A model generated the notes under the pieces. The model saw only the letters and a program-made list of their open reading frames with translations, was not told the DNA's origin and did not search any database. DNA of 64,000 bases, from the NCBI GenBank assembly GCA_937912005.1, contig CALDOX010000014.1:205186-269185 (forward strand). The letters run 5' to 3'. Both the position numbers and the translations under genes were made by a program. The DNA comes from an uncultured Alphaproteobacteria bacterium (lineage in GTDB: Bacteria; Pseudomonadota; Alphaproteobacteria; CAAGCB01; CAG-977). This document shows, one piece after another, positions 46,379-64,000 of the stretch (its first letter is position 1; each line of letters opens with the position of its first letter).

Positions 46379-46445
46379 AGCCGTATTCCCCGAAAAAAAA
46401 TCGGTCGCCGCACGCGCGGCGACACCGTTTGAATAGCCTACAACA

Positions 46446-46600: not shown

Positions 46601-46644
46601 AAATCGCCCTCAAACAGCTGTAAAATTTCTTCCGTCACACACGC

Positions 46645-47737: not shown

Positions 47738-47805
47738 AAACGACTTGGCTTTTTGATAAAAATAATCACAATTTGTTGTATGTTAAAAAATGTATTTATT
47801 GGTCA

Positions 47806-47831
47806 AGCAGGGAATTATCCCTGCTTTTTTT
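47806..47831 (+). terminator. terminator/attenuator-like hairpin upstream of the tail-fibre gene
   Basis: agcaggg-aattat-ccctgc followed by a T7 run. Confidence 0.5.
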
Positions 47832-47844
47832 ATTTGAGGTAAAA

Positions 47845-49506
47845 ATGACGGTAAGTACAACAACAAACAAAGTTGTTTATATCGGGAACGGAATTGCAAC
47901 TACATTTGCAATCCCGTTTCCTTTTTTGGAAAGGGAGCATTTAAAGGTCAGACAACTTTTAAACAACGTGCAGACGGAAAGGACGGATTGGACGGTTTCG
48001 GGCGGGAATATGGTTTTTGCGACGGCTCCGGCGGATGATGCGCAAATCGTGATTATGCGCGAAGTGCCGTTGACGCAGGAAACTGACTATCGGGAAAACG
48101 AGGTTTTGCCGGCTGAAACGCTTGAACGCAATTTCGACAAGCTGACAATGCAGATTCAACAGCTGAAAGAGCAGGCGGAACGGGCGGTAACGGTGGACTT
48201 ATTTTCAGCTTCTGATCCATCTGTATTAGTAGATAAAATTGAAAAACTTTACCGTATCAAAGACGAGATAGTTGTTGCGGCTCAAAACATCTCATCGTTG
48301 ACGACAGTTTCGGACGATATTTCTTCTATTCATACCGCGGCTACTCACATATCTGCTATTACTGATGCGATAAATCAAGCAACACAAGCCTCCAGCAGTG
48401 CCAATAAAGCCCGAATCTGGGCAGAAGGAACGGATGAGGAAATCGTGTCTGTCAATGGAATCCATTCCGCAAAAAGATGGGCAGAAATTATGGATACGAC
48501 GGAATTTAACAAAACGTACACAGCAAGCCGTGTTTTGTCTGTTCCACAAAACATAAAAATTTCTCTGACGGCAGGAGTTGTAAAACTAACTGCAGGAAGT
48601 GTCGTTTATGATGGGAACGGTAACAATATGAGGCTTCAGCAAGACCTTTCTTTAAACGGTGGATTTCAAGGAAAAGGACTGCTGGTTGTTTCAAAGACGG
48701 GTCATTTGTGGGAAATGGATTTAACACATGTCTTTTCCCAAACAACAGAACCGGCGGCTCCGTATCTTTGGTATAATCCGAACACCAAGATAACAAGATT
48801 TAACGATAATTTGGGAACGGTCGGCGAAGTATATTTGCCATGCGCGCAAGTTGTCTATTTGGGCTCGTCTTATGTTCAGATAGATCGAGTATTCAACGGA
48901 ATCGGTTGTATTGCTTCAACCGTATTTGTTTTGCCTCATATCAAAGGACAGGCCTTACAATCAATCAGTTCGGACGGTACTTGTTCTAATACGATATGGG
49001 AAACAAGTGGTGTTCAGACAGTCGCAGTAAATAATACGCTTCATCTTGTTGTTGATGCGAACGGGATGCTGAATACGAAAAGCACTTTTAATGTTTTTTC
49101 CGATATTGGTTTCACAGACTTAGGAATAGTCGTTGTCAGCGGAGGATCGATTGTTTCGATGCCGAGCAGAAGTATAGATACAATCAATACATATCCAACC
49201 TCTGAACTGGCCAAAATGGGAATGCCCGGAAGCAAAAGGCTTATTGTAGTAACAGGTGCTTCTTTCGCAACCTACATCGCCCCAGCAAACAGATTTTTTA
49301 CAATTTCCGGAACAGTTGAGGTGAATAGTTTTGCCTTTGTGGATATTGAGAACCTCTCAACTTTTATCAAAGATTCCGATCATTCTTATACGTTAGGCTC
49401 AACTATATCCGCCTATATTCCGGCAAAAGCGGGAGAAAGCGTCCAAATCGCTTACGGACAAACTACACCAGTTGTTTCATTTATCTACGCAGAAGGAGAA
49501 GAATAA
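47845..49506 (+). CDS. phage tail-fibre protein with T7 gp17-type N-terminal (tail-attachment) domain
   Basis: N-terminus KVVYIGNGIATTFAIPFPFLEREHLKV...DYRE resembles T7 gp17 (VLTYQLDGSNRDFNIPFEYL...DYRF); Ala/Ser-rich shaft repeats; beta-rich C-terminus; GAGG RBS. Confidence 0.6.
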   Translation: MTVSTTTNKVVYIGNGIATTFAIPFPFLEREHLKVRQLLNNVQTERTDWTVSGGNMVFATAPADDAQIVIMREVPLTQETDYRENEVLPAETLERNFDKLTMQIQQLKEQAERAVTVDLFSASDPSVLVDKIEKLYRIKDEIVVAAQNISSLTTVSDDISSIHTAATHISAITDAINQATQASSSANKARIWAEGTDEEIVSVNGIHSAKRWAEIMDTTEFNKTYTASRVLSVPQNIKISLTAGVVKLTAGSVVYDGNGNNMRLQQDLSLNGGFQGKGLLVVSKTGHLWEMDLTHVFSQTTEPAAPYLWYNPNTKITRFNDNLGTVGEVYLPCAQVVYLGSSYVQIDRVFNGIGCIASTVFVLPHIKGQALQSISSDGTCSNTIWETSGVQTVAVNNTLHLVVDANGMLNTKSTFNVFSDIGFTDLGIVVVSGGSIVSMPSRSIDTINTYPTSELAKMGMPGSKRLIVVTGASFATYIAPANRFFTISGTVEVNSFAFVDIENLSTFIKDSDHSYTLGSTISAYIPAKAGESVQIAYGQTTPVVSFIYAEGEE

Positions 49507-49895
49507 TGTATAAAGGCCATCAGAACGGAAAATTAAAGTTCATTTGGAATGAAAAAGAAAAACAACCGTCTTTGATAAATTTGGAAAAAGTGGAAATAGA
49601 CAATGAACATACCATCAACGATTATGTTCAATACCACAAAGAGTTTATTCTAAAAACGGATTATCCTGTTCCTGTGGAAAACGAAAACATTCGTCAGAAA
49701 CGCCAAGAGCATTTTGTTTCAGAAACGGATCCTTTGAAGTTTGATATGGATGAACTCCGTGTTCGTTATGAGCAAGAAGCAGATGAACAAAAGAAAACAG
49801 AATTTTTAAAAAAGATAGGTCTGTTGCGGGAAGAATGGTTGATTAAAAAAGATCGAATTCGTGAGGAGTTTCCTTTTATAGAAAACAAACCTTAA
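49506..49895 (+). CDS. hypothetical protein (possible tail-fibre assembly/chaperone); overlaps the fibre stop (TAATG)
   Basis: Translational coupling to the fibre gene. Confidence 0.3.
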   Translation: MYKGHQNGKLKFIWNEKEKQPSLINLEKVEIDNEHTINDYVQYHKEFILKTDYPVPVENENIRQKRQEHFVSETDPLKFDMDELRVRYEQEADEQKKTEFLKKIGLLREEWLIKKDRIREEFPFIENKP

Positions 49896-49922
49896 CGATA
49901 ATAGAATCAACGGTTAAATATT

Positions 49923-50012: not shown

Positions 50013-51047
50013 TTATTGATTTTTTCTAAATTTGGCTTTCATGATGATTTTATACATTTTTTTCTTTTTTGATATTCTCTTTTTCAGCTTCCCAAAAGAA
50101 ATCATTTTTAAAAATGAGTAAAAAATGTATTTTAAGAAGACTGCTTTTTTTTGCTTAATGAAATCATACTCTTTTGAATACGTTTTTTTTAATTCTTCAC
50201 AAAGAGGCTTATTACAGTCAATTTTTTGAATAAATGTCATCAATGTGAACAAAAACGTATCTTCTTCATCGCATAAAAAAAAACGTTGTTTTTCTTTCAG
50301 AAAACGAAGATAAGCCAGTCCGCATTTTTCAAACCATTCTTCGGTTTTCATCATGCCTGTCCAAATGCCACCTTTATTCCGGCGATAAACAGCCATCACA
50401 TCCGGCAGGAACGCTATTTTCCCTGTTTGTGCGTGCAGTAAATGCAGAAACCAGTCTGCCGGTAAAATCCCGCTCGGAATCGAATCCAAAGAATCTTGAT
50501 GAAAGCGCCATCTGTAAACAACAGAGTTTGTTTGAATGAAATTATGATCCAACAAATCTTTTAGTGATAATTCTGTTTTATATAAGCGATATTTATCTTC
50601 CGGAAAAATTTCATCCGGTAAAGAAGCGTCGTTATAATGAACTGTTACAGGATGAAAGCAAACAGAAAAATCAGGGTGAGCATCTAAAAAATCGACTTGT
50701 TTTTGCAATTTTAAAGGATCTGTCCAATAATCATCACCCTCACATAAAGCGACATATTGACCGCGAATCATCGGAAAAAGAATGTCTTTGCCGATTTCTT
50801 TCTTCCCCCATTGATTTTCTGTCTGATAGACACAGCGGAATAAGTGAGGATACTTGCCTTCATATTCTCGAATAATGTTCGCCGTTTTATCTGTCGAAGC
50901 GTCGTCGTTAATTAAAACTTCAAACGGGAAATTTGCCTTTTGCATCACGAAACCATTCAAACATTCGCGAATAAACGGTTCTTGATTGTATGCCAAACAA
51001 ACAATAGAGAGTTTTATATTATCGCCATTTGATTTTTTGTAAGTCAT
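50013..51047 (-). CDS. family 2 glycosyltransferase
   Basis: GT-A N-terminal domain (SIVCLAYNQEPFI, INDDASTD, DxD in CEGDDYW); AT-rich. Confidence 0.65.
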   Translation of the reverse strand: MTYKKSNGDNIKLSIVCLAYNQEPFIRECLNGFVMQKANFPFEVLINDDASTDKTANIIREYEGKYPHLFRCVYQTENQWGKKEIGKDILFPMIRGQYVALCEGDDYWTDPLKLQKQVDFLDAHPDFSVCFHPVTVHYNDASLPDEIFPEDKYRLYKTELSLKDLLDHNFIQTNSVVYRWRFHQDSLDSIPSGILPADWFLHLLHAQTGKIAFLPDVMAVYRRNKGGIWTGMMKTEEWFEKCGLAYLRFLKEKQRFFLCDEEDTFLFTLMTFIQKIDCNKPLCEELKKTYSKEYDFIKQKKAVFLKYIFYSFLKMISFGKLKKRISKKKKMYKIIMKAKFRKNQ

Positions 51048-51076
51048 AATTAAATTTTCCTAAATTCATACATTCT

Positions 51077-52765
51077 TTATCCCCATTGCTTTTTTATCCA
51101 ATTAAATAAATCGTTTTCCCGTTCTTTAATAGTAACTTTATTCCAACCTTTTTTCTTAATTAAATCAGAAACCTCACGTTCAATAAATAAATCTCTATAT
51201 GCGTCTTTTTTCTCATCCGGTTTTTTATCTTGAAGAGAGCTATTCTTAGAGGCTTCTAAGATCAAAAGATTACCCAATCGATGTTTATAGATTTTATCAT
51301 TTTTTTCTGCATCAAAAGAATCCACGCAGTGTTCTGTATCTGCTTTTGGGAAAATATGCTCAATAGTATCTTTTACAGGAGAAGTTAAAATTGCATTCCA
51401 AGTTTTTTTCTGTATTTGCTTTGTTTTCCGCGCTTTTTCAGCTAAATATAATTCTCGTTTATAAAATAAGTATTTTAATTCTTCATCCCAAGTTTCATAT
51501 AAATTTGATTTTTTTAAAAACTTAATAGCTTGTTCAATATTACAATCTTCAGAAAGTTTCTGTATTTGTTTTATAGCATCTTTGTATTTAATTACTCCTT
51601 TAATGATATTCCGTCCAATGACAATAAAATCACCTACTTTAAAACGAGCATCTTTCTGTTCAAGGCCATAAATTTTAAACGTTGATTTCTCCCATTCCGC
51701 AATCAATTCTTCCTTTTGATCATGAGTATAATTGGACAACCAAATACATAAAGCTAAAAAGCGAGGCTGTTGAATACGAATTAAAAATCTAATGCTATTA
51801 TTTATTTCTAATTCTTTTAATTTAGAAATATATTTCTTTAATTCTCTTGCTATTTCTATAGCATTTGAAGATTTTCCTTCACTTTTTTTCATTAAGTATA
51901 AAACACTGTCTTCCTCTTTTAAAAAACGGCTGGTTGTATCTTTTAAAGTAGCAAGATAACGAATTGCCATTGAACCAAATTCTTTATTTTCACCTAATTC
52001 ATCATAGATAGAAGACCAAATTTTATGCATAGATTCAATTTGAGATTTTGTTGCGGTTTTTTCATAAAGAAGCCCCATCATCATACATTTTAATCTATCC
52101 AACCATTCAACGGGGAGACCGCGAAAATTAAGAACTTCAAAGGTTCTATAGACTACACTTTCATCATCAATGGTATGCAATATAAAAGAGAGTTTGTTTT
52201 TTAATAAAGCATATAAATCAAGAATCTTTGCATTATTTTTGTTTATCCATTTATCAACGAATTCTTGACATAACTGTATTGAATTTTTTAATAACCGATC
52301 TGAAAGTCTTTGAATATCGTCATCAGTATTATTAATTGTTCCTTTTCTTAGCCATTCAGAGAATATTTCATGTTTATCGTGGTTCATTTTTAAAATAGGC
52401 GTTGTGTGCTTATCTGATTTTACAAGAATCCGTCCTAATTCATTTTTATCTTCCGTATTATCCTCTAACTTTAAGTAGATTGCTTTCAATAAAATCAACA
52501 AAGTAGTGATTCTTTGTTGTCCGTCAACGATATCATAAATTGTATATTCTGTTGTGCTGCCTAAATTTTCTTTTTCTTTGTGTTTTAAACAAACCAATGT
52601 AGCCATGAAATGTTCAGAACGTTTATGCTCATAAACATTTTCTATATCAGAAAACAATGCCTTGATTTGCTTCTCTTCCCAACTATAAGCTCTTTGATAT
52701 TCTGGAATCGAAAAAAGGCGTTCATTTAACAGCTGACTTAAAGTATACAATTCCGGTTTTAACAT
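51077..52765 (-). CDS. GmrSD-family type IV restriction endonuclease (DUF262 plus DUF1524)
   Basis: N-terminal IPEYQRAYSW and VDGQQRITTL; C-terminal His-Me finger EHIFP...LGNLLILEASKNSSLQDK. Confidence 0.7.
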   Translation of the reverse strand: MLKPELYTLSQLLNERLFSIPEYQRAYSWEEKQIKALFSDIENVYEHKRSEHFMATLVCLKHKEKENLGSTTEYTIYDIVDGQQRITTLLILLKAIYLKLEDNTEDKNELGRILVKSDKHTTPILKMNHDKHEIFSEWLRKGTINNTDDDIQRLSDRLLKNSIQLCQEFVDKWINKNNAKILDLYALLKNKLSFILHTIDDESVVYRTFEVLNFRGLPVEWLDRLKCMMMGLLYEKTATKSQIESMHKIWSSIYDELGENKEFGSMAIRYLATLKDTTSRFLKEEDSVLYLMKKSEGKSSNAIEIARELKKYISKLKELEINNSIRFLIRIQQPRFLALCIWLSNYTHDQKEELIAEWEKSTFKIYGLEQKDARFKVGDFIVIGRNIIKGVIKYKDAIKQIQKLSEDCNIEQAIKFLKKSNLYETWDEELKYLFYKRELYLAEKARKTKQIQKKTWNAILTSPVKDTIEHIFPKADTEHCVDSFDAEKNDKIYKHRLGNLLILEASKNSSLQDKKPDEKKDAYRDLFIEREVSDLIKKKGWNKVTIKERENDLFNWIKKQWG

Positions 52766-52792
52766 TTTTTCCCCTTTTTTGACTGAGTTATC

Positions 52793-53710
52793 TTAACGGT
52801 TCTGTTTTTTTATGATCGTTTTCACCGCTTCGATTTCATCCGCGCAGAAACCGCTTGTATCGCTGCGAATGATGCCGTTTTCGTTCAGGAGGCACGGCAG
52901 GCTTAAAGCGGTGTCTGTATGACCGAACTCGCCGTTTAATGGGCGGGTCAGAGGGACGCATATCGTGTATCCCTGTTTGATTTCGTTGATGATGTAGGCG
53001 ATACAGCCGGCGATACCGTAATGCGTGCGCCCTTTGCCTTTGATGATGTCCGCACCCATATCGGCAATGTGTTGCGCGATGGTTTGTTTGTCCGTTTCGG
53101 TCAGTGTTTTATTATGCGTCACCAGCCACTCGGGCAACGGCTGATTTTCAACCGTAACGGAGCTCCACAAAAGAATGGAATTGGAGCCGTGTTCTCCGAC
53201 GACAAAAGCGCGGATCGATTTTTCCGCTACGCCCAAAAAGTCGCCCAATACCGAACGGAAACGAGCGGAATCCAACAGGCATCCCGTGCCGAACACGCGT
53301 CCCGTTGTTTCGTTCAATTCTTCCGCGATGATCTGTGTGATCGTATCGACGGGATTGGACACGACGATGACCAGTCCGTGCGCGTTGTTTTCTTTCAATT
53401 TAGCGGCGATATCTTTGGCAATGACAGCATTTCTTCCGATCAGATCCATGCGCGTTTCACCGACTTTCCGATTGACGCCCGCCGTAACGATGACGATATC
53501 ACTGTCCGCCGTATCAGCATAGGATCCTTGAAAAACCTTTGTCGGACTGATTTCCGCCAATCCGGGGCGAATGTCGGCGACTTCCGCTCTGACCGCTGTG
53601 TCGTTGATGTCGATCAAAGCGATTTCGTCTGCGGCTTCGACGAGCATCAGCGAATACGCTATGCTGGAACCGACATATCCCGCTCCGATGATGGAAATCT
53701 TTTTTATCAT
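52793..53710 (-). CDS. L-lactate/malate dehydrogenase family protein
   Basis: Rossmann motif ISIIGAGYVGSS; LDH/MDH core motifs. Confidence 0.7.
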   Translation of the reverse strand: MIKKISIIGAGYVGSSIAYSLMLVEAADEIALIDINDTAVRAEVADIRPGLAEISPTKVFQGSYADTADSDIVIVTAGVNRKVGETRMDLIGRNAVIAKDIAAKLKENNAHGLVIVVSNPVDTITQIIAEELNETTGRVFGTGCLLDSARFRSVLGDFLGVAEKSIRAFVVGEHGSNSILLWSSVTVENQPLPEWLVTHNKTLTETDKQTIAQHIADMGADIIKGKGRTHYGIAGCIAYIINEIKQGYTICVPLTRPLNGEFGHTDTALSLPCLLNENGIIRSDTSGFCADEIEAVKTIIKKQNR

Positions 53711-54888
53711 GACACGTTCACAATCCTTGACAGTTCTCTGATTAAATCGTGGCCGTCCCAGACGACGTCGATGTCCATCGCTTTGCCGGCGGGGACGATG
53801 CGGTCGATGCCGCGGACGTTCGCGGCGATCAGTTCTTCGCGCAATTTGACCGGATCGATGCCGAAATATGTGATCGTCTGGAATTTTTCCGTGATTACGG
53901 CGCAGAGTTCCTGAACATCATTCAGACTATGTTCAAAGAAGTATCCTCCTTTGCCGCGGTGGTTGATGATATCGGGCGTTAATACTTCGACTTCTTCGCG
54001 ATATAGCAGATTGCCGCTATGGGCGAAGTTTTGCGCGTTGGCGTTTCTAACGGCTTCGGTGCAGAACAGCGTGTACTTGTCAACGGCAACCGCGTCCTGC
54101 AAAGCGTATTTCGCTTTGGCAACCTCCAGAGCCGCGCTCCAGAACTTTTCCCGCGCATCATCGCTGCCGTTTTGCCACAGGATGATTTGCGGCGAAGAAC
54201 AGGCATTCTGATCCATTAGCCACGTGTCGTTATAGAAGTTTTCCGCCAGCCGTTTCATTTGCGCTTCATCGGCGTTCAAAACCGCTTCACCGTCGATTAT
54301 CGCCAAAGAATACCGGTCGGCGAAAGCGATATCGACACAGCGCGGGGACGCCGGACACGCTTTGACGGCGGCGATCGTCTTATCACCGCCCCAAATCATA
54401 CGGGCGTCGGCGTGTTTGCAAAATTCAGCGGTGATTTCATCGCTGCGCGGATAGCGGACGAACGCCGTTCTTTTTTCGATTTCGGGATACCCGGCCAGCA
54501 CTTTTTTCATCAAAGCACACAAGGCGTCGATCTGCGGGAAAGTCTTCGACGGCAAACGGACGACGTTCGCATTCCCCGCCAGCAGTCCGAACAGATAAGT
54601 GAACGCGAAATTCACCGGAATGTTGGACGGCGCGATATGAAAGCATAATCCGCGCCCCAGGCGTCCCGCCGTATCGCCGAACGTTTCTTTCAGCTTTTGC
54701 AGGTTCGCCTTGCGTCCCCAAAACGCCAAAGCTGACAAATCCGGATAAGCCCTTGCCAACGGGGATTTCAGAATTTCCGCCGACAGCTCCGCGATAAAAG
54801 CGCACGCCGTATCGTCATACACCCGTATCGGCGTATTGACGACATCCGCCGTTCCGATCACATACTCAACGCCGTTCAAAGGTATCAC
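53707..54888 (-). CDS. LuxC-like acyl-CoA/acyl-protein reductase
   Basis: LuxC family length and pattern; 4-nt overlap with the downstream gene. Confidence 0.55.
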   Translation of the reverse strand: MIPLNGVEYVIGTADVVNTPIRVYDDTACAFIAELSAEILKSPLARAYPDLSALAFWGRKANLQKLKETFGDTAGRLGRGLCFHIAPSNIPVNFAFTYLFGLLAGNANVVRLPSKTFPQIDALCALMKKVLAGYPEIEKRTAFVRYPRSDEITAEFCKHADARMIWGGDKTIAAVKACPASPRCVDIAFADRYSLAIIDGEAVLNADEAQMKRLAENFYNDTWLMDQNACSSPQIILWQNGSDDAREKFWSAALEVAKAKYALQDAVAVDKYTLFCTEAVRNANAQNFAHSGNLLYREEVEVLTPDIINHRGKGGYFFEHSLNDVQELCAVITEKFQTITYFGIDPVKLREELIAANVRGIDRIVPAGKAMDIDVVWDGHDLIRELSRIVNVS

Positions 54889-55942
54889 TGCACCCTCTCA
54901 ATTCAGCGCTCTTGATGCGCCCGTGGATTTTGAAATACTTGCCTTTTCTGCCGCACGGACAGTCGTCCACGCCCAGAATTTCCCCTTCGTCCTCGGTTAA
55001 GAGAACGTGCCCCGGATAGCTGACAGGAAGGACGGACAACAGCTCCATCAATCCCTTTTCGCCGATTTCCGCTTCGGAAAAGTCTTTCGAGCGACGGATG
55101 ATCACATCGGAATAATTGGAGCAATGCATATGCCCGTGTTCACATTCGACAAAGACCGAACCGAGCTGCTCCGCCATCCCGTAATAGTTATAGACTTTGA
55201 CGTTGCCCAGACGTCCTTGAACGCGGCGGTTGAATTCCAACGCGTCGACCTCCTGATCTTTCAGCTTTTTCCATCCGCCGATATGGAACAGAACGGCGTT
55301 TTGAGCGTTAAAGGAAATGTTCTTTTCCTCCAAAGCGCGCACGACAAACTGCCAAATCATATAGGTGTAGCCGAACATTAAAATCGGTTCGTTTTGATGT
55401 TCCTCGAAGAAAGCGGCGACTTTATCGACATCGATGTTCATTTCGGCGTCCAGCGCGTAAGTGCTGTTGCGGCCGAAAATCGAAAAGCCGATAATGCCCG
55501 CGCCGCGCGCCGAATACATCGACCGGTCTTTCTTGATCATTTCCGTATCAAGCAGCAACAGCGGCAGACGCTGTTTGCCGATGAACGAAGAAATGATCTC
55601 GTTCAGCGTCTTTGTCTGCGAACGCACGTTGTCCGCGTTCAAAAAGATTTTGGACACCGCCTGTCCCGATGTTCCCGAAGACGTCAGCGTCTTGGTGATT
55701 TCCTCTTTCGGAACGGAGCGCAATTCGAACTGCTTGAACAACCGGACCGGCAGGAACGGCAAATCCGCGCAAGCGTGATTTTGCGCCGCGTCAAACCTCA
55801 GCGCGTCCAATATCCGCGCGTATTCGGGGCAAGCCGCATAATGACGGCGCGTCAGGTCGTTTAAAATATCCTTCAGCGCCTCGTCTTTCTCGGCTTTGCT
55901 CAAAGAATAAGGGGCGATTTGGAACAACTCGTCAAGCGTCAT
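54866..55942 (-). CDS. LuxE-like acyl-protein synthetase
   Basis: LuxE family pattern; adjacent to the LuxC-like gene. Confidence 0.55.
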   Translation of the reverse strand: MTLDELFQIAPYSLSKAEKDEALKDILNDLTRRHYAACPEYARILDALRFDAAQNHACADLPFLPVRLFKQFELRSVPKEEITKTLTSSGTSGQAVSKIFLNADNVRSQTKTLNEIISSFIGKQRLPLLLLDTEMIKKDRSMYSARGAGIIGFSIFGRNSTYALDAEMNIDVDKVAAFFEEHQNEPILMFGYTYMIWQFVVRALEEKNISFNAQNAVLFHIGGWKKLKDQEVDALEFNRRVQGRLGNVKVYNYYGMAEQLGSVFVECEHGHMHCSNYSDVIIRRSKDFSEAEIGEKGLMELLSVLPVSYPGHVLLTEDEGEILGVDDCPCGRKGKYFKIHGRIKSAELRGCSDTFERR

Positions 55943-56528
55943 GGCTCACCTCTTTGATAAAAATATCCTGCGGGTCGGAAAACGTCGCCCCGAACGTGGC
56001 ATAGACGTTCATTACCGCCGCGTTTTGCGTGCTGACGCGCCCTTCCAGTTTTTTATACCCGCGCTCTTTGGCGATCTTGCAGGCGTTCGCATACAAAGCC
56101 ATAGCCGCTCCCGTCATACGGTACTTTTCCTCTACAGCCGCCAAATGCACGAACACCGTATCCGGCGCCGTTTCTTTCAACGCCAGAAATCCGACAGGCT
56201 GTTCTTTGAACAAAGCGACAAAGACGGTGTCCAACTCATCGACCCATTTTTTCAAAACGACGCCTGAAACATCGGTCGAACAGTCGGGTAGAACGTGAAA
56301 CCGCCGGTCATAAGCAAACGAAGCGACGGCAATACGCAAAACATCGTCCTTATATTCCGCCGTTTCGATGATCGGCAGACGGATGAACCTGTCCAGATCG
56401 ACCGCGATTTTAGACAGGCTGATCGTTGTTTTCATCGTCCGGTCGGCAAAGAAAAAGCCGTCCCGCTGCATACGGATTTCGTTGGCGGCATCGGTTGGCG
56501 CGACAATGTATCCGTCCGTTTCCGTCAT
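55932..56528 (-). CDS. GNAT-family N-acetyltransferase
   Basis: C-terminal GNAT core (VHLAAVEEKYRMTGAAMALY). Confidence 0.5.
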   Translation of the reverse strand: MTETDGYIVAPTDAANEIRMQRDGFFFADRTMKTTISLSKIAVDLDRFIRLPIIETAEYKDDVLRIAVASFAYDRRFHVLPDCSTDVSGVVLKKWVDELDTVFVALFKEQPVGFLALKETAPDTVFVHLAAVEEKYRMTGAAMALYANACKIAKERGYKKLEGRVSTQNAAVMNVYATFGATFSDPQDIFIKEVSHDA

Positions 56529-57958
56529 CGTTCATTCAGCTCCGCATAAAGGGTTTTGCCCGCGTCGTTCTTCGGGATTTCCGGCAAATACTTGACGTGG
56601 AACGCCGTAAAGTTCAGATGCGTCTTTTCCGCGACGAAAGTCTGCACTTCCTTGATTTTCGTTTCGTCGGTAACAAAGATTTTCATCGCGTCGTCAACGC
56701 CCGCGCACGCACATTCAAAATCGGGATAGTGCGCTTTGATCAGCCGTTCCGTTTCATCCAGATTCACGCGGTTGCCGAAGATTTTTAAGAACCGCTTTTT
56801 CCGTCCGACAATGGAGAAATAGCTGTCCGCGTCAAATTTCGCCATATCGCCTGTTTGCAACACGCCGCCGCGTTCGTCGCCTTTGGCAAGATCTTCGCCG
56901 CAAACGGCATAGCCCAACGTCACGTTGTCGCCCGTATAGACCAGTTCTCCGACCGTTTCTGGCGTTGTAATTTTTCCGCCGTCCGCGTCGATCAGATCAA
57001 ACCTGCCGCCGGGAATGGCGATCCCCATCGCGCCGCACTTTTCCAAAGCCTTTGACGCCGGCAGATACGCCATGCGCGCCGTTGCTTCCGCCTGTCCGTA
57101 CATCACGATAAAGCGTTTGCCTTCGCGTTCGGCGTATTCGGCGAACTTCTTGTGCAGTTCAGGCAAAATCTTTCCCCCTGCCTGCGTCATCGTGCGCAAA
57201 TCGGGCAGCTTGCGGCGGAAGAACATCAACTTGTCCAGCATCTCGTAAGTATAGGGAACGCCGCCGAAAGAGGTCGCTTTCTGTTGTGTGAAGAAGTCCC
57301 AGAACTCGCGCTGCATCAACGTCTTGCGCGTCATCAGAAGCGTTGCTCCCGCCGCCAGATGCGTGTTGATGATCGACAGGCCGTAAGTGTAATTCATCGG
57401 CAGCGTCGTGATCGCGCGTTCCGTTTCGTCGATTTCCAGATACTCGACGATCGAACGCGTGTTCGCTTTGATATTTTTATAGCTTTGACGGACGAATTTC
57501 GGCGATCCCGTCGATCCCGAAGTCGTCAGCAACAACGCCAGTTCCTCATGTAACGGATAAGCGTGTTCGTCCGCCCGCTTCAACAGCGTGTAGCCGTTCG
57601 ACGCATAGACGGCTTCGCCTTCAAACTCCGCCGTCTTATCCGTCGGCAACCAGAGGTAATCCGGCTTGTAAAGCGTTAAAAAATTATCCAACAGTTCGCG
57701 GTCGATATGCTCGTCCAGCATCAGCGGCACAATGCCGTGATTTAAAAACGACACATACCCGATCAGAGAACCGGCCGTGTTCGAGCATAAGTTGAAAACA
57801 AGACAACGGTCGGGAACGACGGCCGCCAACGCTTCCGTTTCTTCGCTCAGCCGCGCGTAGGAAAACGTTTCCCCGTCTTCCGTCACAACGGCCGTGTTGT
57901 CTTTAAACTCAAGCAAATTCCACATTGTATTTGGCAAGGATCTCTTTTCCTTTTTCAT
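56525..57958 (-). CDS. AMP-dependent synthetase/ligase (acyl-AMP/ACP ligase-like)
   Basis: AMP-binding motif TSGSTGSPK; adenylation domain length. Confidence 0.7.
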   Translation of the reverse strand: MKKEKRSLPNTMWNLLEFKDNTAVVTEDGETFSYARLSEETEALAAVVPDRCLVFNLCSNTAGSLIGYVSFLNHGIVPLMLDEHIDRELLDNFLTLYKPDYLWLPTDKTAEFEGEAVYASNGYTLLKRADEHAYPLHEELALLLTTSGSTGSPKFVRQSYKNIKANTRSIVEYLEIDETERAITTLPMNYTYGLSIINTHLAAGATLLMTRKTLMQREFWDFFTQQKATSFGGVPYTYEMLDKLMFFRRKLPDLRTMTQAGGKILPELHKKFAEYAEREGKRFIVMYGQAEATARMAYLPASKALEKCGAMGIAIPGGRFDLIDADGGKITTPETVGELVYTGDNVTLGYAVCGEDLAKGDERGGVLQTGDMAKFDADSYFSIVGRKKRFLKIFGNRVNLDETERLIKAHYPDFECACAGVDDAMKIFVTDETKIKEVQTFVAEKTHLNFTAFHVKYLPEIPKNDAGKTLYAELNER

Positions 57959-58154
57959 AGCTGTTCAAATCGACGATGTCGTCGGGTTCCAACATAATGT
58001 CGAACGCTTCCTCGATCTGCGCGACCAAGCCCATGTGCCCGACGGAATCCCAAGCGTCGATCGCCTGAAACTTCAAGCCTTTCGCCGTGTCCGCATCGAT
58101 GTCGAATGCCTGACAAAAGGCATTCGTGTATTTTTCCTCGTTTGTCATTTGCAT
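57909..58154 (-). CDS. acyl carrier protein
   Basis: Phosphopantetheine attachment motif DAWDSVGHMGLV. Confidence 0.7.
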   Translation of the reverse strand: MQMTNEEKYTNAFCQAFDIDADTAKGLKFQAIDAWDSVGHMGLVAQIEEAFDIMLEPDDIVDLNSYEKGKEILAKYNVEFA

Positions 58155-59122
58155 AACTCCTCGTAAGTCTTTTGAATTTTTAAAGCGATTTGATCCGCCG
58201 TCAGACCGGCCTGTTCCAACAGGTACGGATAACTTGCCGCGTGGGGATAGTCCCCCGAAACGCCGATGATCAGGTGAGGGGGCTTATTCCTTTCCAAAGC
58301 CAGAGCTTCGGCAACCGCGCCGCCAATCCCGCCGTAAACGCTGTGTTCCTCGACGGTAACGATCAGTTTCGCCGAACAGGCGGCTTTGACCGCCTCCACA
58401 TCCAGCGGCTTGATCGTGTGCATATCGACGACTTTGACCGACAAGCCGTTTTCCGCGAGCTTTTCCGCCGCTTTCAAAGAATTGTAAACCATCGTTCCCG
58501 TCGCGATGACGGCAATATCCGTTCCCTCGCGCAACGTGATCGCCTTGCCGATTTCAAAATCAAAGTCTTCCTTGTAAACGACGGGAATATTATTGGGGCC
58601 GCCGATCCGCATATATGTCGGCTGTTGATTTTCAGCCATAGCCATCATCATTTTGACCGTTTGCGTCGCATCACACGGGGAAAGGACGGTTATATTCGGG
58701 AACGTTCTGTATAGGGCAATATCATGCAACCCCAAATGTGTCGGACCGCATTCTCCTTGCGTCAGTCCTGTAAAAATACCGACAAGTTTGACATTGCTTT
58801 TCATATATGCCATGGCGACATGAGCCTGATCTGCACAGCGCATCGAAGCAAAAGCCGCCTGAAACGCCAGAAAAGGAACAAATCCTTCGCTTGCCAGACC
58901 GGCGGCGACATTGATGGCATTTTGCTCGGAAATCCCCATGTTGAAATAACGGTCGGGATATTGTTTTTCAAACCGCCCTAAACCGATCAATGCGGCTTGA
59001 TCCGCCGTCATGGCAATGATTTTTTCATTTTCGCCCGCCAGATCGAAAACGGTTTTTCCGAAAGTGCCGCGTTGTCCCAATAACGCCCAAGACCGAATAT
59101 TCGCTGGAGAAAATTTAATCAT
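58145..59122 (-). CDS. transketolase, C-terminal (pyrimidine-binding) subunit
   Basis: Split transketolase family pattern (GISEQNAINVAAGLA...). Confidence 0.75.
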   Translation of the reverse strand: MIKFSPANIRSWALLGQRGTFGKTVFDLAGENEKIIAMTADQAALIGLGRFEKQYPDRYFNMGISEQNAINVAAGLASEGFVPFLAFQAAFASMRCADQAHVAMAYMKSNVKLVGIFTGLTQGECGPTHLGLHDIALYRTFPNITVLSPCDATQTVKMMMAMAENQQPTYMRIGGPNNIPVVYKEDFDFEIGKAITLREGTDIAVIATGTMVYNSLKAAEKLAENGLSVKVVDMHTIKPLDVEAVKAACSAKLIVTVEEHSVYGGIGGAVAEALALERNKPPHLIIGVSGDYPHAASYPYLLEQAGLTADQIALKIQKTYEELCK

Positions 59123-59930
59123 CTTCCTGCTCCTTCATCGCCTGTTCGTATTGCTGCTGTGTCAGCGGATGGACGTGCCATTCCGGATTGTTTTCGATAA
59201 AGGAAACCCCTTTGCCTTTTATTGTTTGCGCCATGATTGCGACGGGCTTTTCGCTATGATGGGCAAAAGCAGTCAGAAGACTTTCCACATTGTGACCATC
59301 AGCTTGAACGGTATCGAAACCGAACGCTTGCCAACGTTTTGTCAGATCGTCTTTGTTCACGATGTCTTTTGTCGGCGCGTCAAGTTGCAATTTGTTTTCA
59401 TCAACAATGACAGTAATGTTGTTCAGTTTATGATGGGAAACAAACGAAGCCGCTTCCCATATCGAACCTTCGTCACATTCTCCGTCACCAATGACGACAT
59501 AGATATGCGCAGGATTGTTTTTTCTTTTGAACGCCAGAGCGATACCCGCCGCCAAGGAAAGTCCTTGCCCCAAAGAACCGGAGGAAAACTCTATACCACA
59601 GCGCGGATTTTTACACGGATGAGTCCAGAACGGTCCGCCGTCATGTTTGAACGTTGAAAGCTCTTCATCGGTTATAAAGCCGGCTTCTTTAAGCGTTGCG
59701 TAAAGAGCAATGGCTCCATGCCCTTTGCTTAAGATAAATCGGTCGCGTGTTTCGCTGTCTTTTGTTTCAGGAGAAACATTCATCACCCCTAAATATAAAG
59801 TCGCCAGAATTTCCGGCAAAGACAATCCGCCGCCGATATGTGCGCCATATGCTCCAGCGTGATAAGTCATATCTATGATGTTCCGCCTGATATGAATTGC
59901 CGCTTTTGTTATTTCTTCAACGCGGTTCAT
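59115..59930 (-). CDS. transketolase, N-terminal (TPP-binding) subunit
   Basis: GHGAIALYATL and GDG TPP-binding motifs. Confidence 0.75.
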   Translation of the reverse strand: MNRVEEITKAAIHIRRNIIDMTYHAGAYGAHIGGGLSLPEILATLYLGVMNVSPETKDSETRDRFILSKGHGAIALYATLKEAGFITDEELSTFKHDGGPFWTHPCKNPRCGIEFSSGSLGQGLSLAAGIALAFKRKNNPAHIYVVIGDGECDEGSIWEAASFVSHHKLNNITVIVDENKLQLDAPTKDIVNKDDLTKRWQAFGFDTVQADGHNVESLLTAFAHHSEKPVAIMAQTIKGKGVSFIENNPEWHVHPLTQQQYEQAMKEQEDD

Positions 59931-60667
59931 GCCTGTCCCCCATCAGCCCGAATAACCGTTCCATTCACGAATGAAGACAAATCACTTGCTAAAAATAAAG
60001 CAATATCAGCGATTTCAGATGGCTTCCCTTTTCGCTTTAACGCAGAAGATGCTATCATTCGTTCTTCCACAAAATCTTTTACAGATGCTCCCATTTCTGT
60101 ATCGATCAGTCCCGGAGCAATCGCATTGACACGAATATTGTAACTTCCCAGTTCCGCCGCCAACGTCTTTGTCCACGCTGCAACAGCCGCTTTAGATGTA
60201 CCATAAGCCGAATTTCCAGCAGGAAGATCTATTCCCGAAACAGACGCAAAATTGATGATGCTTCCCGCTTTTTGACGACACATCTTTCGCAAAATCAATT
60301 GCGTAATTTCCATTTGAGAAAAGAAGTTAATTTCGAAAATTTCCCTGATTTGCGTAACAGGTGTTCGTAGAAAACTGACACCATGACCGATTCCGGCACA
60401 GTTGATTAAAACATCTATCGGGGATTTTCCCAAAACGAACGGCTTTAATGCCGCTCGAATAGTTTCGGTATCCGTCATTTCAAAATAAACAGGTGTTATT
60501 TTAACATTATATCGGGAAGAAAGATCATTTAGTAACTGAATAAAACCGTTCGTTTCTTTTCTGGCATGAGCTATAACATTAGCTCTGTTCACCGCAAATG
60601 TCTCCAACAAAGCTTTTCCGATACCGCGGTTTGTTCCCGTAATTAAAGCTGTTCTCCCTTTAAGCAT
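59927..60667 (-). CDS. short-chain dehydrogenase/reductase (FabG-like)
   Basis: TGTNRGIGKAL Rossmann motif; YxxxK (YGTSKAA). Confidence 0.8.
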   Translation of the reverse strand: MLKGRTALITGTNRGIGKALLETFAVNRANVIAHARKETNGFIQLLNDLSSRYNVKITPVYFEMTDTETIRAALKPFVLGKSPIDVLINCAGIGHGVSFLRTPVTQIREIFEINFFSQMEITQLILRKMCRQKAGSIINFASVSGIDLPAGNSAYGTSKAAVAAWTKTLAAELGSYNIRVNAIAPGLIDTEMGASVKDFVEERMIASSALKRKGKPSEIADIALFLASDLSSFVNGTVIRADGGQA

Positions 60668-61442
60668 AGATTTTATCCTTATCTAATATTACACAACTAT
60701 TATCAAAAGATAATAAACTATTTTTCTTTAACTTATTGAAAACATCCGCTTCTTTTTTTAAATTTGATATAATTCGATTAACATTTTTCTTATTATCATC
60801 CCAATATGGACCAATATGCTCCTCAAGAAATTTATCTATATATTCCCAAGTAATTTTTCCACCAGAAATCTTAACTACTTGTGTCAAGTCGCTTATATAT
60901 TTTTCATAAAACTTTTCTTTTGAGCTGGAAGTTCCCCAAAAAGCGCAAATATTATCAACAGGAACACTTTCGATGTCGATCACAACTTCTTTTTGAGTAT
61001 TCCCAAATCTCCCTATGCCCTTGCTATATTCTTTTATATTTTTTTTATGTTTCTCGCATGCCTTAATAAAAGCCGCGTCACTGTACAACGATTCAATGTT
61101 TAATATAATGTTACTACAATTTGTTATTTTTATTATGTAATTTATTCCAATATTAGGATGTAATGGAATTCCTTCTTTATAAAAACTTTTGGCAACCGTA
61201 TAATCTGTTGTCCAACTTGTAACTCCGAATAAAATTTTCTGCTTTAAAAAAGCATCAAAAATTGAACGTTCTTTCACATGATTTCTGAAATCGGTTATTC
61301 TATAACATGGCTTATCACATTTTTTCAAATGATCGTCTATCGGAAAACTCCTTAATTTTTGCGCTAGTTCATCTCTTTTTTCACGCATTCCATGAGCTTG
61401 CCAATCATTTACAGTTTGAATAAAATCTAACGTGTATTCCAT
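60660..61442 (-). CDS. hypothetical protein (strongly AT-rich insert within the cluster)
   Basis: ORF only; composition differs from the flanking genes. Confidence 0.3.
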   Translation of the reverse strand: MEYTLDFIQTVNDWQAHGMREKRDELAQKLRSFPIDDHLKKCDKPCYRITDFRNHVKERSIFDAFLKQKILFGVTSWTTDYTVAKSFYKEGIPLHPNIGINYIIKITNCSNIILNIESLYSDAAFIKACEKHKKNIKEYSKGIGRFGNTQKEVVIDIESVPVDNICAFWGTSSSKEKFYEKYISDLTQVVKISGGKITWEYIDKFLEEHIGPYWDDNKKNVNRIISNLKKEADVFNKLKKNSLLSFDNSCVILDKDKIYA

Positions 61443-61460
61443 TTCTTTATCCTTATTTTC

Positions 61461-62597
61461 TTAATCGCAACTTTTCCAATAATCGATCCAGTATTTGATT
61501 CGTTCCTGTCGATTCATTTTTCCAGCGGGCGTTTTATATAAACGAATGCCTCCGCAATACATTTTTTCAAAATCAAGAACGGCAAACCCCCATGACAGAC
61601 CGACGCCAAATGTCGCCAGACAAACATTCTTTTCGCTTTTTTCTTTCAGATGACGGCATAAATCCATCGCGACGGCGACGTTTCCGCAGTTTCCATACTG
61701 TGAAAACGTTTCCGTAGAAAATTTATCTTTCGGCAATCCCGCATACATGGCAACCGTCCGGACAATCTGTTTGTTCGCCTGATGAAAAGCGAAGAAATCA
61801 ATATCATCCTTTGTTTTTCCAGCGTAATCCAAAACAGCGGCGATACCTTTCGGTCCGACATCTGTGGTGAACTTGAATACATCAAGTCCTTTCATAATCT
61901 CGTCCCACAAATGCCACACATTCCCGCGGTCATCGGTTTCTTCAATATCGATAATGTCTTTTCTTATCGGTAAAGCCCAACCACCGGCGGGGGCGATAAT
62001 TTTATCCCAATCCTTGCCACGTGTGCCAGTATAAAACCATGACGGTTTTTCTTCATCCGTGTATTCCAGAAGAGTTGCCGTTCCCGCATCGCCGAACAAC
62101 ATATTAGAGTTGCGGTTTCTTCTATCGGAATGAATACTGGCGATTTCTCCGGAAAGCAAAAGAACTTTCTTTGCCGCGCCACTTGCAATCAGCGAATGGG
62201 CCAACCATAAACTATGGACATACGCCGAACACGCCAATCCCGTCATATCGAAGCAGGAGCAGTTTTCACTTAACCCCAAAATTCCCTGAAGAATACACGC
62301 TGAAGCCGGATATTTGTAATCCAATGATGTGGATACCATGATCACAGCATCGATCGTGTCTTTGTCGACATTCAAAGCGTCAATCAAGTCGCGCGCGGCG
62401 GCTTCACACAAATCGCAATTCGTCGTGCGGTCGTCGGCAACGTGGCGTGTTCCCAATCCCAGAATTTTTTTGTTGCGTTCCAACAGCTTCGGATCGTTGT
62501 TGAAAAATTCGATTTCATCGTCGATGTTGATGAAATTTTCCGGAACAACCGCCGTTATACCGCTGATTTTGACGTGATTGAATTGACTGAATCCCAT
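61461..62597 (-). CDS. FabH-like 3-oxoacyl-ACP synthase III family protein
   Basis: KASIII fold with active-site Cys region (FDMTGLACSAY), HQANKQI, and a C-terminal tail shared with the next KASIII; start MGFSQFN with AGGGA RBS. Confidence 0.7.
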   Translation of the reverse strand: MGFSQFNHVKISGITAVVPENFINIDDEIEFFNNDPKLLERNKKILGLGTRHVADDRTTNCDLCEAAARDLIDALNVDKDTIDAVIMVSTSLDYKYPASACILQGILGLSENCSCFDMTGLACSAYVHSLWLAHSLIASGAAKKVLLLSGEIASIHSDRRNRNSNMLFGDAGTATLLEYTDEEKPSWFYTGTRGKDWDKIIAPAGGWALPIRKDIIDIEETDDRGNVWHLWDEIMKGLDVFKFTTDVGPKGIAAVLDYAGKTKDDIDFFAFHQANKQIVRTVAMYAGLPKDKFSTETFSQYGNCGNVAVAMDLCRHLKEKSEKNVCLATFGVGLSWGFAVLDFEKMYCGGIRLYKTPAGKMNRQERIKYWIDYWKSCD

Positions 62598-62607
62598 TGT
62601 TTCCCTT

Positions 62608-63351
62608 TTAATACGTTCCGCAATCCAATATATAATTCTGCCCTGTAATCCATTTTGATTTATCGGAGAGTAAGAAAACAATCATATTGGCTATATCTTC
62701 CGGCTTTCCAAAGCCGAAAGGGTATTTTTGAGACATTTCCTGATAATAATCGGAAGAACCGTCCCCCAACATTGGAGTAGCTATCATTGAGGGGGATACC
62801 GTATTAACACGAATTTGCTGAGACGAAAGTTCCCGAGCAATCGCTTTCATAGAAGCCGATAAAGCGGCTTTGCTACCTGCATAAGCTATTTGTCCTTTTT
62901 CTGCAATATTCGCTGCGATAGAGGCTATAGCAACCACAGCAGAACCTTTACCATTGTTAACTCGCCGATCTGCGAACCCTTTTGCCAGAAAAACAGCTGA
63001 AAAATAATTTACATCAAACGTCTGTTTAATTGCATCAATGTCCATTGATTGTAACGAAAGCAAAGTCCCTATTCCCGCGCAACAAGCCATACCCTGAAAT
63101 TTGCCGTATTTGTCTTTCAACGATTTGATCCACGCGGGCAAACCTTCAATATCTTCCGTTAAATCTTTTTGTTCTAAAAAAATGTTTTCGGGATATTTTG
63201 CCTTGGCTTTCATTCCCTCAAGCCGTTCTTGGCTGCGGCCGATACCGATGACTGTTGCCCTCAATTCATTCAATAACAAGGCCACGGCTTCGCCAATCCC
63301 TGACGAAGCCCCCGTAACGATAAAACGTTGTTCCGGTGTAAATGAAATCAT
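62608..63351 (-). CDS. short-chain dehydrogenase/reductase
   Basis: TGASSGIGEAV motif; YAGSKAA. Confidence 0.8.
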   Translation of the reverse strand: MISFTPEQRFIVTGASSGIGEAVALLLNELRATVIGIGRSQERLEGMKAKAKYPENIFLEQKDLTEDIEGLPAWIKSLKDKYGKFQGMACCAGIGTLLSLQSMDIDAIKQTFDVNYFSAVFLAKGFADRRVNNGKGSAVVAIASIAANIAEKGQIAYAGSKAALSASMKAIARELSSQQIRVNTVSPSMIATPMLGDGSSDYYQEMSQKYPFGFGKPEDIANMIVFLLSDKSKWITGQNYILDCGTY

Positions 63352-63353
63352 TT

Positions 63354-63572
63354 TTAAAGTCCCGCCTTTTTAGCAATATCGCCGATTGTTTTCATTTCCT
63401 TGTAATCTTTCATTGTCGTTTTGACGCCGAAAGACTTTTCCAAAAACGCCATCGTCGCCATCACGGACAAGGAATCCCATTCGTCCAAATCATTCAGAAC
63501 GGTATCCATGGACAGGTCTTCCTCCGTTTGCAAAACGTCCTGCATTTGAGTTAAAAACTCTTCGTTTGTCAT
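63354..63572 (-). CDS. acyl carrier protein
   Basis: LDEWDSLSVMATM phosphopantetheine attachment motif. Confidence 0.7.
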   Translation of the reverse strand: MTNEEFLTQMQDVLQTEEDLSMDTVLNDLDEWDSLSVMATMAFLEKSFGVKTTMKDYKEMKTIGDIAKKAGL

Positions 63573-64000
63573 TCTTCTTCTCCTTTAAAGTAGTTGATCC
63601 AGTATTGAATTTGTTGTTCGCGCGTCGGCTTATCCTTCGGGGAAATATACGATGATATTCCGCCGTTATACATTCCGGACAAATCAAGCGCCGCTCCGCT
63701 CCATGACAACCCGACACCAAAGGCGCATAAAATTACGTTTTTCAACGGCTTTGTCTGGTCGCATAAGACCGTTACGACCGAATTGGTCGAGTTGTTCGCA
63801 TATTTTGAAAAAACGTCAACGGGGGCTTTTTCAGGCGGAACGCCTGCTTTGGAAACAATGTTTTCGACGATCTGTTTGTTTGCCTGATGAATGGCGAATA
63901 AATCAATGTCGTCCGCCATCCAGTTTGCCGCTTTCATTGTATCGTTCAGCAACGCGGGCGCAACATCCATCGTAAAATTAAAGACGTCTTCTCCTTTTAA
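63569..64000 (-). CDS. FabH-like KASIII family protein (C-terminal part; gene continues beyond window)
   Basis: C-terminal half paralogous to 61461-62597 (FAIHQANKQIV, GVGLSW, conserved YW tail). Confidence 0.6.
   Translation of the reverse strand, partial: LKGEDVFNFTMDVAPALLNDTMKAANWMADDIDLFAIHQANKQIVENIVSKAGVPPEKAPVDVFSKYANNSTNSVVTVLCDQTKPLKNVILCAFGVGLSWSGAALDLSGMYNGGISSYISPKDKPTREQQIQYWINYFKGEEE

Follow-up and report, generated by a model that had tools for sequence, protein, structure and literature searches.

Among the closest described counterparts of the genes considered here are the tetronate genes of Vibrio cholerae O1. Genes VC0248-0252 adjoin perosamine and ABC-transport genes, and wbeL, encoding the ligase, is needed for the O1 antigen (PMC3441752). 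A LuxE domain is present in RfbN (PMC4772473), and both PMC4772473 (citing Morona 1995) and PMC3441752 link such domains to tetronate synthesis. Here we analyze an operon on the minus strand of a contig from an uncultured Alphaproteobacteria bacterium (assembly GCA_937912005.1, contig CALDOX010000014.1, positions 205,186 to 269,185; this whole stretch of 64,000 nucleotides is referred to as the window), in which LuxE- and LuxC-like enzymes are encoded together with a dedicated acyl carrier protein (ACP) and a split transketolase-like enzyme. Judging from sequence comparisons, this operon may well make a hydroxyacyl group via the ACP and the LuxE/LuxC pair for the decoration of an amino sugar.

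As in the V. cholerae O1 region rfbK-O/wbeK-O, which yields 3-deoxy-L-glycero-tetronate, the core module of the operon combines a dedicated ACP, an AMP-forming ligase of approximately 470 aa, LuxE- and LuxC-type functions, and a reductase. The V. cholerae genes lie in an amino-sugar O-antigen locus, and amino-sugar loci also surround relatives of our operon, and one of the related loci (designated here by L numbers), L086, has the same ABC-exporter and DegT layout as the wbe region; in V. cholerae, the product, a short hydroxyacyl group, is attached to the nitrogen of an amino sugar. The similarity is one of function and layout, and, unlike in V. cholerae, where RfbN is a fusion of LuxC and LuxE, these two are separate open reading frames (ORFs) here. 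Moreover, the module adds a split transketolase-like enzyme, a GNAT acyltransferase and a malate-type dehydrogenase. V. cholerae RfbM was reportedly identified by Morona in 1995 as an iron alcohol dehydrogenase; no Fe-ADH domain was found by Pfam in the module, which has a short-chain dehydrogenase/reductase (SDR) instead of RfbM.

A similar set, consisting of ACP, FabG-type SDR, AMP-dependent synthetase, LuxE, and LuxC, is found among pseudaminic acid (Pse) genes in flagellin glycosylation islands of Aeromonas group II and Enterobacteriaceae, where these related genes had been noticed and left uncharacterized (PMC7874193, PMC4875605). In the Aeromonas piscicola AH-3 island the order is ACP-FabG-ligase-LuxE-LuxC-GT2, and the flagellin carries a 376.14-Da Pse derivative and a 102-Da moiety of unsolved structure; the conserved family-2 glycosyltransferase (GT2; Fgi-1) following the Aeromonas set (PMC7874193) is arranged as in L001-L003, where the GT2 comes directly after LuxC. 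Related loci L001-L003, L005, and L087 show the same neighbors as these islands. The islands are described without a transketolase, while the window has no flagellar or maf genes.

Compared with the bioluminescence LuxCDE system, the LuxE adenylation residues and C-terminal acyl-cysteine, as well as the LuxC catalytic cysteine, are present in the module, whereas the LuxC-like protein lacks about 90 N-terminal residues, sequence identity is low (E = 2e-12; by profile only, 4e-19), and the genes have a glycan context. Since no LuxD acyltransferase or luxAB luciferase domain was found on any ORF in 50013-64000, this is not a LuxCDE system. The initial annotation had suggested a novel pathway. That is true of the transketolase-containing variant, of which, with its remodeled active site, no description was found in the searchable literature, but not of the LuxC/LuxE/ACP/ligase logic, which is already known and widespread.

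The cluster had been delimited previously as 52793-60667, with co-oriented, overlapping genes of named identity. The ORF ends and the Pfam and NCBIfam searches agree with that description: there are nine ORFs on the minus strand with exactly these ends, neighboring genes overlap by 4-50 nt, and the ACP is identified by a profile of its orthologues. The proposed limits, on the other hand, have to be revised, as the operon extends on both sides, from the GT2 gene at 50013, its last gene, after which the strand switches, to beyond the window end (64000). It thus comprises two acyl-building modules and one glycosyltransferase, as listed here in the direction of transcription.

63569..64000, minus strand: KASIII-a (beta-ketoacyl-ACP synthase III, FabH-like), C-terminal part, running off the window (Pfam ACP_syn_III_C, 2e-19)
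63354..63572, minus strand: ACP1, carrier of the upstream ketosynthase module (weak NCBIfam ACP matches, E = 1.5e-5)
62608..63351, minus strand: SDR1, FabG-like ketoreductase of the upstream module (Pfam adh_short_C2, 7e-45)
61461..62681, minus strand: KASIII-b, FabH-like (NCBIfam KASIII PRK12880, 2e-73); the true start is likely the ATG at 62597
60660..61442, minus strand: orphan Lys-rich ORF of 260 aa, 29 % GC, between KASIII-b and SDR2
59927..60667, minus strand: SDR2, FabG-like reductase of the core module (Pfam adh_short_C2, 1e-50)
59115..59930, minus strand: transketolase-like N-terminal subunit (TK-N), binding thiamine diphosphate (ThDP) (Pfam Transketolase_N, 1.2e-37)
58145..59122, minus strand: transketolase-like C-terminal subunit (TK-C) with Pyr and C-domain (Pfam Transket_pyr, Transketolase_C)
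57909..58154, minus strand: ACP2, dedicated carrier protein, an 81-aa ORF, or 79 aa from its likely start, the ATG at 58148
56525..57958, minus strand: adenylate-forming ligase (Pfam AMP-binding, 1.2e-38)
55932..56528, minus strand: GNAT acyltransferase (Pfam Acetyltransf_1, 3.7e-10)
54866..55942, minus strand: LuxE-like acyl-protein synthetase (Pfam LuxE, 1.1e-56)
53707..54888, minus strand: LuxC-like acyl-thioester reductase (Pfam LuxC, 8e-29)
52793..53710, minus strand: dehydrogenase of the lactate dehydrogenase (LDH) superfamily with malate-type Arg102, accessory (Pfam Ldh_1_N/C, 2.5e-35)
51077..52765, minus strand: GmrSD / HEC-06-type type IV restriction gene, 29 % GC (Pfam GmrSD_N, GmrSD_C; PADLOC HEC-06, 7e-49)
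50013..51047, minus strand: family-2 glycosyltransferase, GT2 (Pfam Glycos_transf_2, 5e-20)

The residues needed for carboxyl activation and reduction are retained. The LuxE-like protein aligns end to end with LuxE (7xc6_E), keeping the GGWKK motif, and the cysteine of its C-terminal RGCSD occupies the position of LuxE Cys364, the acylated residue in the motif TRxxKGCxLS (PMC9157457); both GGWKK and RGCSD are invariant across all complete LuxE-like orthologues. For the LuxC-like protein, a single-sequence search of the PDB produced no matches and a profile was needed (profile A1, E = 4e-19), which aligned the invariant cysteine of DQNAC to DQQAC of LuxC (7xc6_A). The ACP2 ORF (57909-58154) has no Pfam match, and the profile of 16 orthologues matches only acyl and peptidyl carrier proteins in the PDB (the best one being 2LML, 8e-7), the serine of the invariant WDS motif aligning to the carrier-protein serine. 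The closest solved relative of the ligase, which is proposed to load the acid onto ACP2, is an oxalate-CoA ligase (6.7e-22; at 81 bits this is weak similarity); malonyl-CoA synthetase (3.6e-18) follows lower in the list, with firefly luciferases and feruloyl-CoA synthetase interleaved at similar scores.

The best NCBIfam matches of the GNAT protein, although weak, are dTDP-4-amino-4,6-dideoxygalactose acyltransferases WecD/RffC, while the PDB yields weak generic matches only; N-acylation of the sugar is its proposed role. A GNAT gene stands at the same position of the module in the window, L001-L005, L007, L015, L086, and L087. SDR2, for which reduction of the ketone or else of the aldehyde is proposed, adjoins TK-N in most related loci with the full module, being absent in L010, L012, and L019.

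LuxE-like homologues are very numerous, at least 7992 clusters having been scored. The order of genes in the module is kept in at least 20 loci from several phyla, which is far beyond chance. The order SDR-TKN-TKC-ACP-(MBL)-ligase-(GNAT)-LuxE-LuxC, where MBL stands for a metallo-beta-lactamase-fold protein, recurs in metagenome-assembled genomes (MAGs) of Alphaproteobacteria and in Melainabacteria, and also in Roseburia zhanii, Lachnospiraceae bacterium 3-1, Anaerovorax, Mageeibacillus, Cellulosilyticum, Bacteroides sp. GM023, and Methanogenium marinum. The halves may be swapped, with ACP-ligase-LuxE-LuxC preceding SDR/TK (L017, L019, and L020, being examples from Lachnospiraceae, Cellulosilyticum, and Methanogenium). 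The locus of the methanogenic archaeon M. marinum DSM 15558 (L019, NZ_JAKELO010000002.1) contains ACP, ligase, LuxE, LuxC, and transketolase-like subunits, with DegT and CMP-transferase genes nearby; the occurrence of the module in an archaeon indicates cross-domain transfer of the cassette.

The genomic context points to glycans. In L087, whose LuxE is 98 % identical to that of the window, genes for PseB, PseC, CMP-transferase, and a NeuB-type protein directly follow LuxC, and in L005 PseB, PseC, and CMP-transferase genes follow LuxC, after which the locus ends. In L086, an ABC-transporter and NDP-amino-deoxyhexose locus, the modules are preceded by a MarR regulator, a Wzm/Wzt-type ABC exporter, a nucleotidyltransferase, a 4,6-dehydratase, and DegT. 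The GT2 orthologue (63 % identity) stands directly after LuxC in L001-L003. Among 136 co-oriented neighbor genes from 16 diverse loci, the leading Pfam families are DegT 11, MBL 9, GT2 8, PseB-type 4, CMP-transferase 4, and NeuB 2. As the neighbors are amino-sugar and nonulosonic-acid genes, GT2s, and an exporter, the module appears to be a glycan-tailoring one rather than a part of lipid or core metabolism. The earlier comparison with the Vibrio tetronate route and amino-sugar decoration is borne out by the Pse clusters of L005 and L087, the exporter locus L086, and the neighbor census. The pathway was also correctly taken to be accessory, not housekeeping, as follows from the glycan context in relatives and from the gene content; core metabolism was rejected because even loci whose LuxE proteins are 97-98 % identical do not share the same set of genes.

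The split transketolase-like enzyme retains the catalytic part of a canonical transketolase and lacks a part of its substrate pocket. As in E. coli TktA, the ThDP motif, the cofactor-activating Glu, and the histidines contacting the donor C1-hydroxyl are conserved: TK-N has the equivalents of TktA H26, H66, H100, D155, N185, and H261, and TK-C has those of E411 and H473. In contrast, the window enzyme has Ala, Phe, and Asn in place of the phosphate-binding S385, H461, and R520, and Cys in place of D469, which contacts the C2-OH of the acceptor. Module-linked copies have non-equivalent residues at nearly all of these four positions, a few of them keeping Ser385 or Arg520, while generic split transketolases in the same alignment (L029, L066) retain H461, D469, and R520. 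According to what Nilsson, Wikner, and Schneider are said to have established in the 1990s, the retained residues perform ketol transfer, and the lost ones bind the phosphate and the alpha-hydroxyl of the acceptor. Since the residues of the sugar-phosphate and acceptor pocket are replaced, the protein should not be a pentose-phosphate enzyme, and the absence of the pocket fits a non-phosphorylated acceptor without an alpha-hydroxyl. In three Clostridia loci (L007, 8197-11781; L011, 6948-11774; L015, 8212-11769) the module contains two tandem pairs of transketolase-like subunits, which might correspond to two successive C2 extensions.

The dehydrogenase has the substrate loop AGVNRKVGETR, with Arg in position 102, where L-LDHs have Gln, and the catalytic His195, Asp168, and Arg171 are present (LDSARFR, GEHG). 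The Gln102Arg replacement is reportedly the classic lactate-to-malate specificity switch (work attributed to Wilks, 1988, and Madern, 2002). The NCBIfam scores are 265 bits for L-LDH TIGR01771 (cut-off 304) and 211 bits for malate dehydrogenase PRK06223 (cut-off 283). A homologue with the same Arg (41-42 % identity) directly follows LuxC in both Melainabacteria loci (L008, L016), and this recurrence argues for a functional linkage.

Two separate carboxyl-activating systems, the ligase with ACP and LuxE with LuxC, suggest a dicarboxylic substrate, one carboxyl of which is held while the other is reduced. In the pathway we propose, the Arg102 dehydrogenase would supply L-malate from oxaloacetate, and the ligase would thioesterify one carboxyl of this hydroxy-dicarboxylic acid onto ACP2, giving malyl-ACP. 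The LuxE-like protein would adenylate the other carboxyl and hand it via its C-terminal cysteine to the cysteine of the LuxC-like protein, which, having the required residues, could reduce it to the aldehyde (4-semialdehyde). The transketolase-like ThDP enzyme would then add a C2 ketol unit to this aldehyde, SDR2 would reduce the ketone to give 2,4,5,6-tetrahydroxyhexanoyl-ACP (3-deoxyhexonoyl-ACP), the GNAT protein would N-acylate an amino sugar or a nonulosonic acid of a surface glycan, and the terminal GT2 would act on the decorated glycan. Without the transketolase step, the same logic would lead to the 2,4-dihydroxybutanoyl group, the 'tetronate' of V. cholerae O1. While the general scheme is rather plausible, the exact substrate (malate) and product (2,4,5,6-tetrahydroxyhexanoyl) are proposed tentatively.

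A group of this kind is known in Treponema denticola, whose flagellin Pse bears 2-methoxy-4,5,6-trihydroxyhexanoyl at N7 (PMC13439194). Its carbon and oxygen skeleton, like that of the predicted product, equals malate plus a C2 ketol unit plus reduction, and it is attached to a Pse-type sugar. Unlike the predicted product, the T. denticola acyl group needs an additional methyltransferase, and it is known as a structure alone. The calculated mass of Pse with the predicted C6 skeleton and one methyl is 450.185, and the T. denticola flagellin glycan is reportedly found at 450.2. Similarly, Pse(Ac)(dihydroxybutanoyl) is calculated at 376.148 and C4H6O3 at 102.032, close to the Aeromonas values. 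Both fits are consistency arguments, not tests. That a 'transketolase-extended tetronate pathway' makes 3-deoxyhexonoyl for pseudaminic-type sugars and is the origin of the T. denticola N7 acyl group, on which flagellar assembly in that species depends, is a speculative proposal.

Several points weigh against this scheme. Every chemical step is deduced from homology and gene order, and the Aeromonas mass matches are arithmetic coincidences until the structures are solved. The LDH-family structure closest to the dehydrogenase, 1Y6J, also has Arg in this position, yet was deposited as an L-LDH; moreover, the dehydrogenase is accessory rather than core, being limited to the window and two Melainabacteria loci, so that malate can be taken as a hint, though not as a constant. 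About half of the loci lack the in-module GNAT, often having an MBL-fold protein instead. No nonulosonic-acid or sugar-nucleotide genes are found within the 64-kb window, and the acceptor sugar in its host would be extrapolated from relatives. Finally, two foreign insertions with 29 % GC in the operon could affect its expression.

About half of the loci carry the gene of the MBL-fold protein (L005, 11953-12738; L008-L012; L014-L016; L086), which is placed between ACP2 and the ligase or, in L009 and L015, upstream of ACP2; the window has none. Most MBL-bearing loci lack the in-module GNAT, while L005, L015, and L086 have both. The MBL-fold protein may be a thioesterase or transferase alternative.

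A different role of the transketolase-like enzyme would be to deliver the C2 unit of a ketose in an oxidized form, as glycolyl-ACP, for N-glycolyl sugars, with LuxE and LuxC acting elsewhere. Such a glycolyl-ACP route was reportedly described by Peng et al. (2012, PNAS) in the biosynthesis of quinocarcin and naphthyridinomycin. The position of the split enzyme directly upstream of ACP, the conserved ketol-forming histidines, and the existence of bacterial N-glycolyl nonulosonic acids (Tannerella UB4, PMC5420450) are compatible with this route. However, no lipoyl or E2-like partner that would oxidize dihydroxyethyl-ThDP was found by Pfam in any ORF, and the strictly co-conserved ligase, LuxE, LuxC, and SDR would be left without a role, making this explanation unlikely.

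The hydroxyacyl reading has also to be weighed against a lipid or 'liposugar' route, in which a fatty acyl chain, or a fatty aldehyde or alcohol, is attached to a glycan or membrane lipid. In its favor, LuxC and LuxE reduce fatty acids in bioluminescent bacteria, there are KASIII, ACP, and FabG-like genes upstream, and in two genome surveys the related genes were labelled 'fatty acid synthesis', with a lipid component being suggested (PMC7874193, PMC4875605). Still, neither a dehydratase nor an enoyl reductase was found among the operon ORFs of the window by Pfam and NCBIfam (no FabZ/FabA, no FabI/FabK domains). The type II fatty-acid synthesis cycle is therefore incomplete, being represented by KASIII, ACP, and SDRs only; the operon does not encode a fatty-acid synthase, and no saturated chain would be formed. 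Moreover, the module includes the transketolase-like enzyme and the malate-type dehydrogenase, the top and several further solved relatives of the ligase are short-dicarboxylate ligases and not FadD, and V. cholerae O1, the sole related system whose product is known, gives a C4 dihydroxy acid (PMC3441752, PMC4772473). We consider a lipid product quite improbable; hence, of the N-acyl or lipid decoration suggested initially, the N-acyl part is retained and the lipid part is not.

The upstream genes form a second acyl module, KASIII-ACP-SDR-KASIII (61461-64000, minus strand), from which a further acyl group, of the 3-hydroxyacyl type, probably results; this could be 3-hydroxybutanoyl or a 3,5-dihydroxyhexanoyl-type group. 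The Cys-His-Asn triad of KASIII-b is intact; the part of KASIII-a within the window has the triad His and Asn, and its full-length orthologues carry Cys-His-Asn. The WDSLS serine motif of ACP1 is conserved in orthologues, of which the one in L001 carries PF00550. The second module is also present in L001, L005, L086 (where the first KASIII is truncated to 131 aa), and L087. Its co-occurrence with the LuxC/LuxE module is confined to Alphaproteobacteria, Melainabacteria, and two sets of unclassified metagenome contigs, L001-L003 and L086. A search with the KASIII-a part inside the window matched gene fragments only, one of which led to L086.

The operon is a mosaic. The high-GC stretch (46-54 %, with GC content at third codon positions, GC3, of 0.45-0.68) is limited to 52.8-59.9 kb, the window mean being 44.9 %; SDR2 (41 %) is below this mean, and the upstream operon genes are at or below it. 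The highest values, 48-54 %, belong to the recombining part from ACP2 to LuxC and to the dehydrogenase gene, and GC3 of the shared ACP2-LuxC block is 0.64-0.68 versus 0.33-0.45 for SDR2 and TK-N. At the protein level, ACP2 to LuxC are 88-98 % identical to those of L001, whereas TK-N, TK-C, and SDR2 are 49 %, 69 %, and 56 % identical, respectively; compared with L004, the transketolase genes are 97 % identical. Nucleotide synteny with L087 ends exactly after LuxC and at SDR2, and thus sharp recombination breakpoints lie inside the operon (window 53720-59879 versus L087 and L001). The separate acquisition suggested by GC content in the initial annotation is true for cassettes recombining inside the operon and not for the operon as a whole.

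Two further genes interrupt the operon. The GmrSD gene, complete and located between the dehydrogenase and GT2 genes, is co-oriented with them and flanked by gaps of just 27 and 29 nt. L001-L003 and L087 lack this gene, which is a defence gene inserted in the operon rather than a part of the pathway. A defence gene is nested here in a locus of the phage-receptor type. Pfam, NCBIfam, and PADLOC gave no match for the 260-aa orphan ORF, which L001-L003, L005, and L087 do not have; synteny breaks there.

Such features could mean that the operon in this genome is a decaying remnant: compared with L001 and L087, GmrSD and the orphan are insertions, the closest relative has Pse genes after LuxC that are lacking here, with no nonulosonic-acid genes in the visible 64 kb, and a mobile element with relaxase, ArdC, and tRNA-Arg island genes abuts the operon end. 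This appears hardly probable, as all pathway ORFs are intact, with catalytic residues and translational overlaps retained, the sugar genes may lie upstream of the window as in L086, and L001-L003 share the GT2-terminated layout. A free small-molecule (secondary-metabolite) cluster unrelated to glycans is very improbable: natural-product clusters do typically contain genes for KASIII, ACP, an adenylating enzyme, and reductases, but every informative relative is flanked by genes of sugar aminotransferases, nucleotidyltransferases, nonulosonic-acid synthases, glycosyltransferases, or polysaccharide ABC exporters, and a GT2 closes the operon in the window.

The host is an uncultured gut or rumen alphaproteobacterium. 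The FtsK protein encoded in the window is 86 % identical to 'MAG: Alphaproteobacteria bacterium' proteins, and the closest genomic match of the transketolase gene (97 %) is from a sheep-rumen alphaproteobacterial MAG (L004). A Bacteroides capsule locus, suggested by GC content and the relaxase, was rejected, as the host markers are alphaproteobacterial. Megablast of 52793-64000 against E. coli genomes and plasmids yielded zero matches. The promoter and terminator scan was uninformative (33 promoter-like sequences versus 25.2 ± 5.2 in shuffled sequence, 16 terminator-like ones versus 18.5 ± 4.2).

Core genes (FtsK, CtpA, iPGM, ProA/ProB) occupy the window up to the tRNA-Arg at 39474. Beside this tRNA-Arg(ACG) there is a low-GC island (39474-49900, down to 28 % GC), which adjoins the GT2 end of the operon and is probably an integrative mobilizable element; L001-L003 share the layout with a relaxase/MobC element at the GT2 end. 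The following genes were identified in the island.

40781-41689: Y-family polymerase
41679-42857: ArdC/zincin anti-restriction protein
44075-45346: second GmrSD_N protein
46916-47737: MobA/VirD2 relaxase
47590-49506: 638-aa protein with a weak T7 tail-fibre N-domain

Recognition by phages and antibodies is decided by the acyl decorations that surface sugars carry; V. cholerae O1 loses its O antigen and becomes resistant to phage ICP1 when the tetronate ligase is lost (PMC3441752). In gut bacteria, the module described here forms a cassette that recombines in a hypervariable glycan locus, and the inserted restriction gene and the adjacent mobile element fit phage-driven diversification. A transketolase-like protein acting as a chain-extending tailoring enzyme would, if true, be new chemistry, and, if the predicted product is right, it would supply the missing pathway for the orphan flagellin glycan of T. 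denticola. The same decoration would then be predicted in many gut Clostridia, Melainabacteria, and Alphaproteobacteria, and even in a methanogen, and glycan structures would become predictable from genomes for thousands of uncultured organisms.

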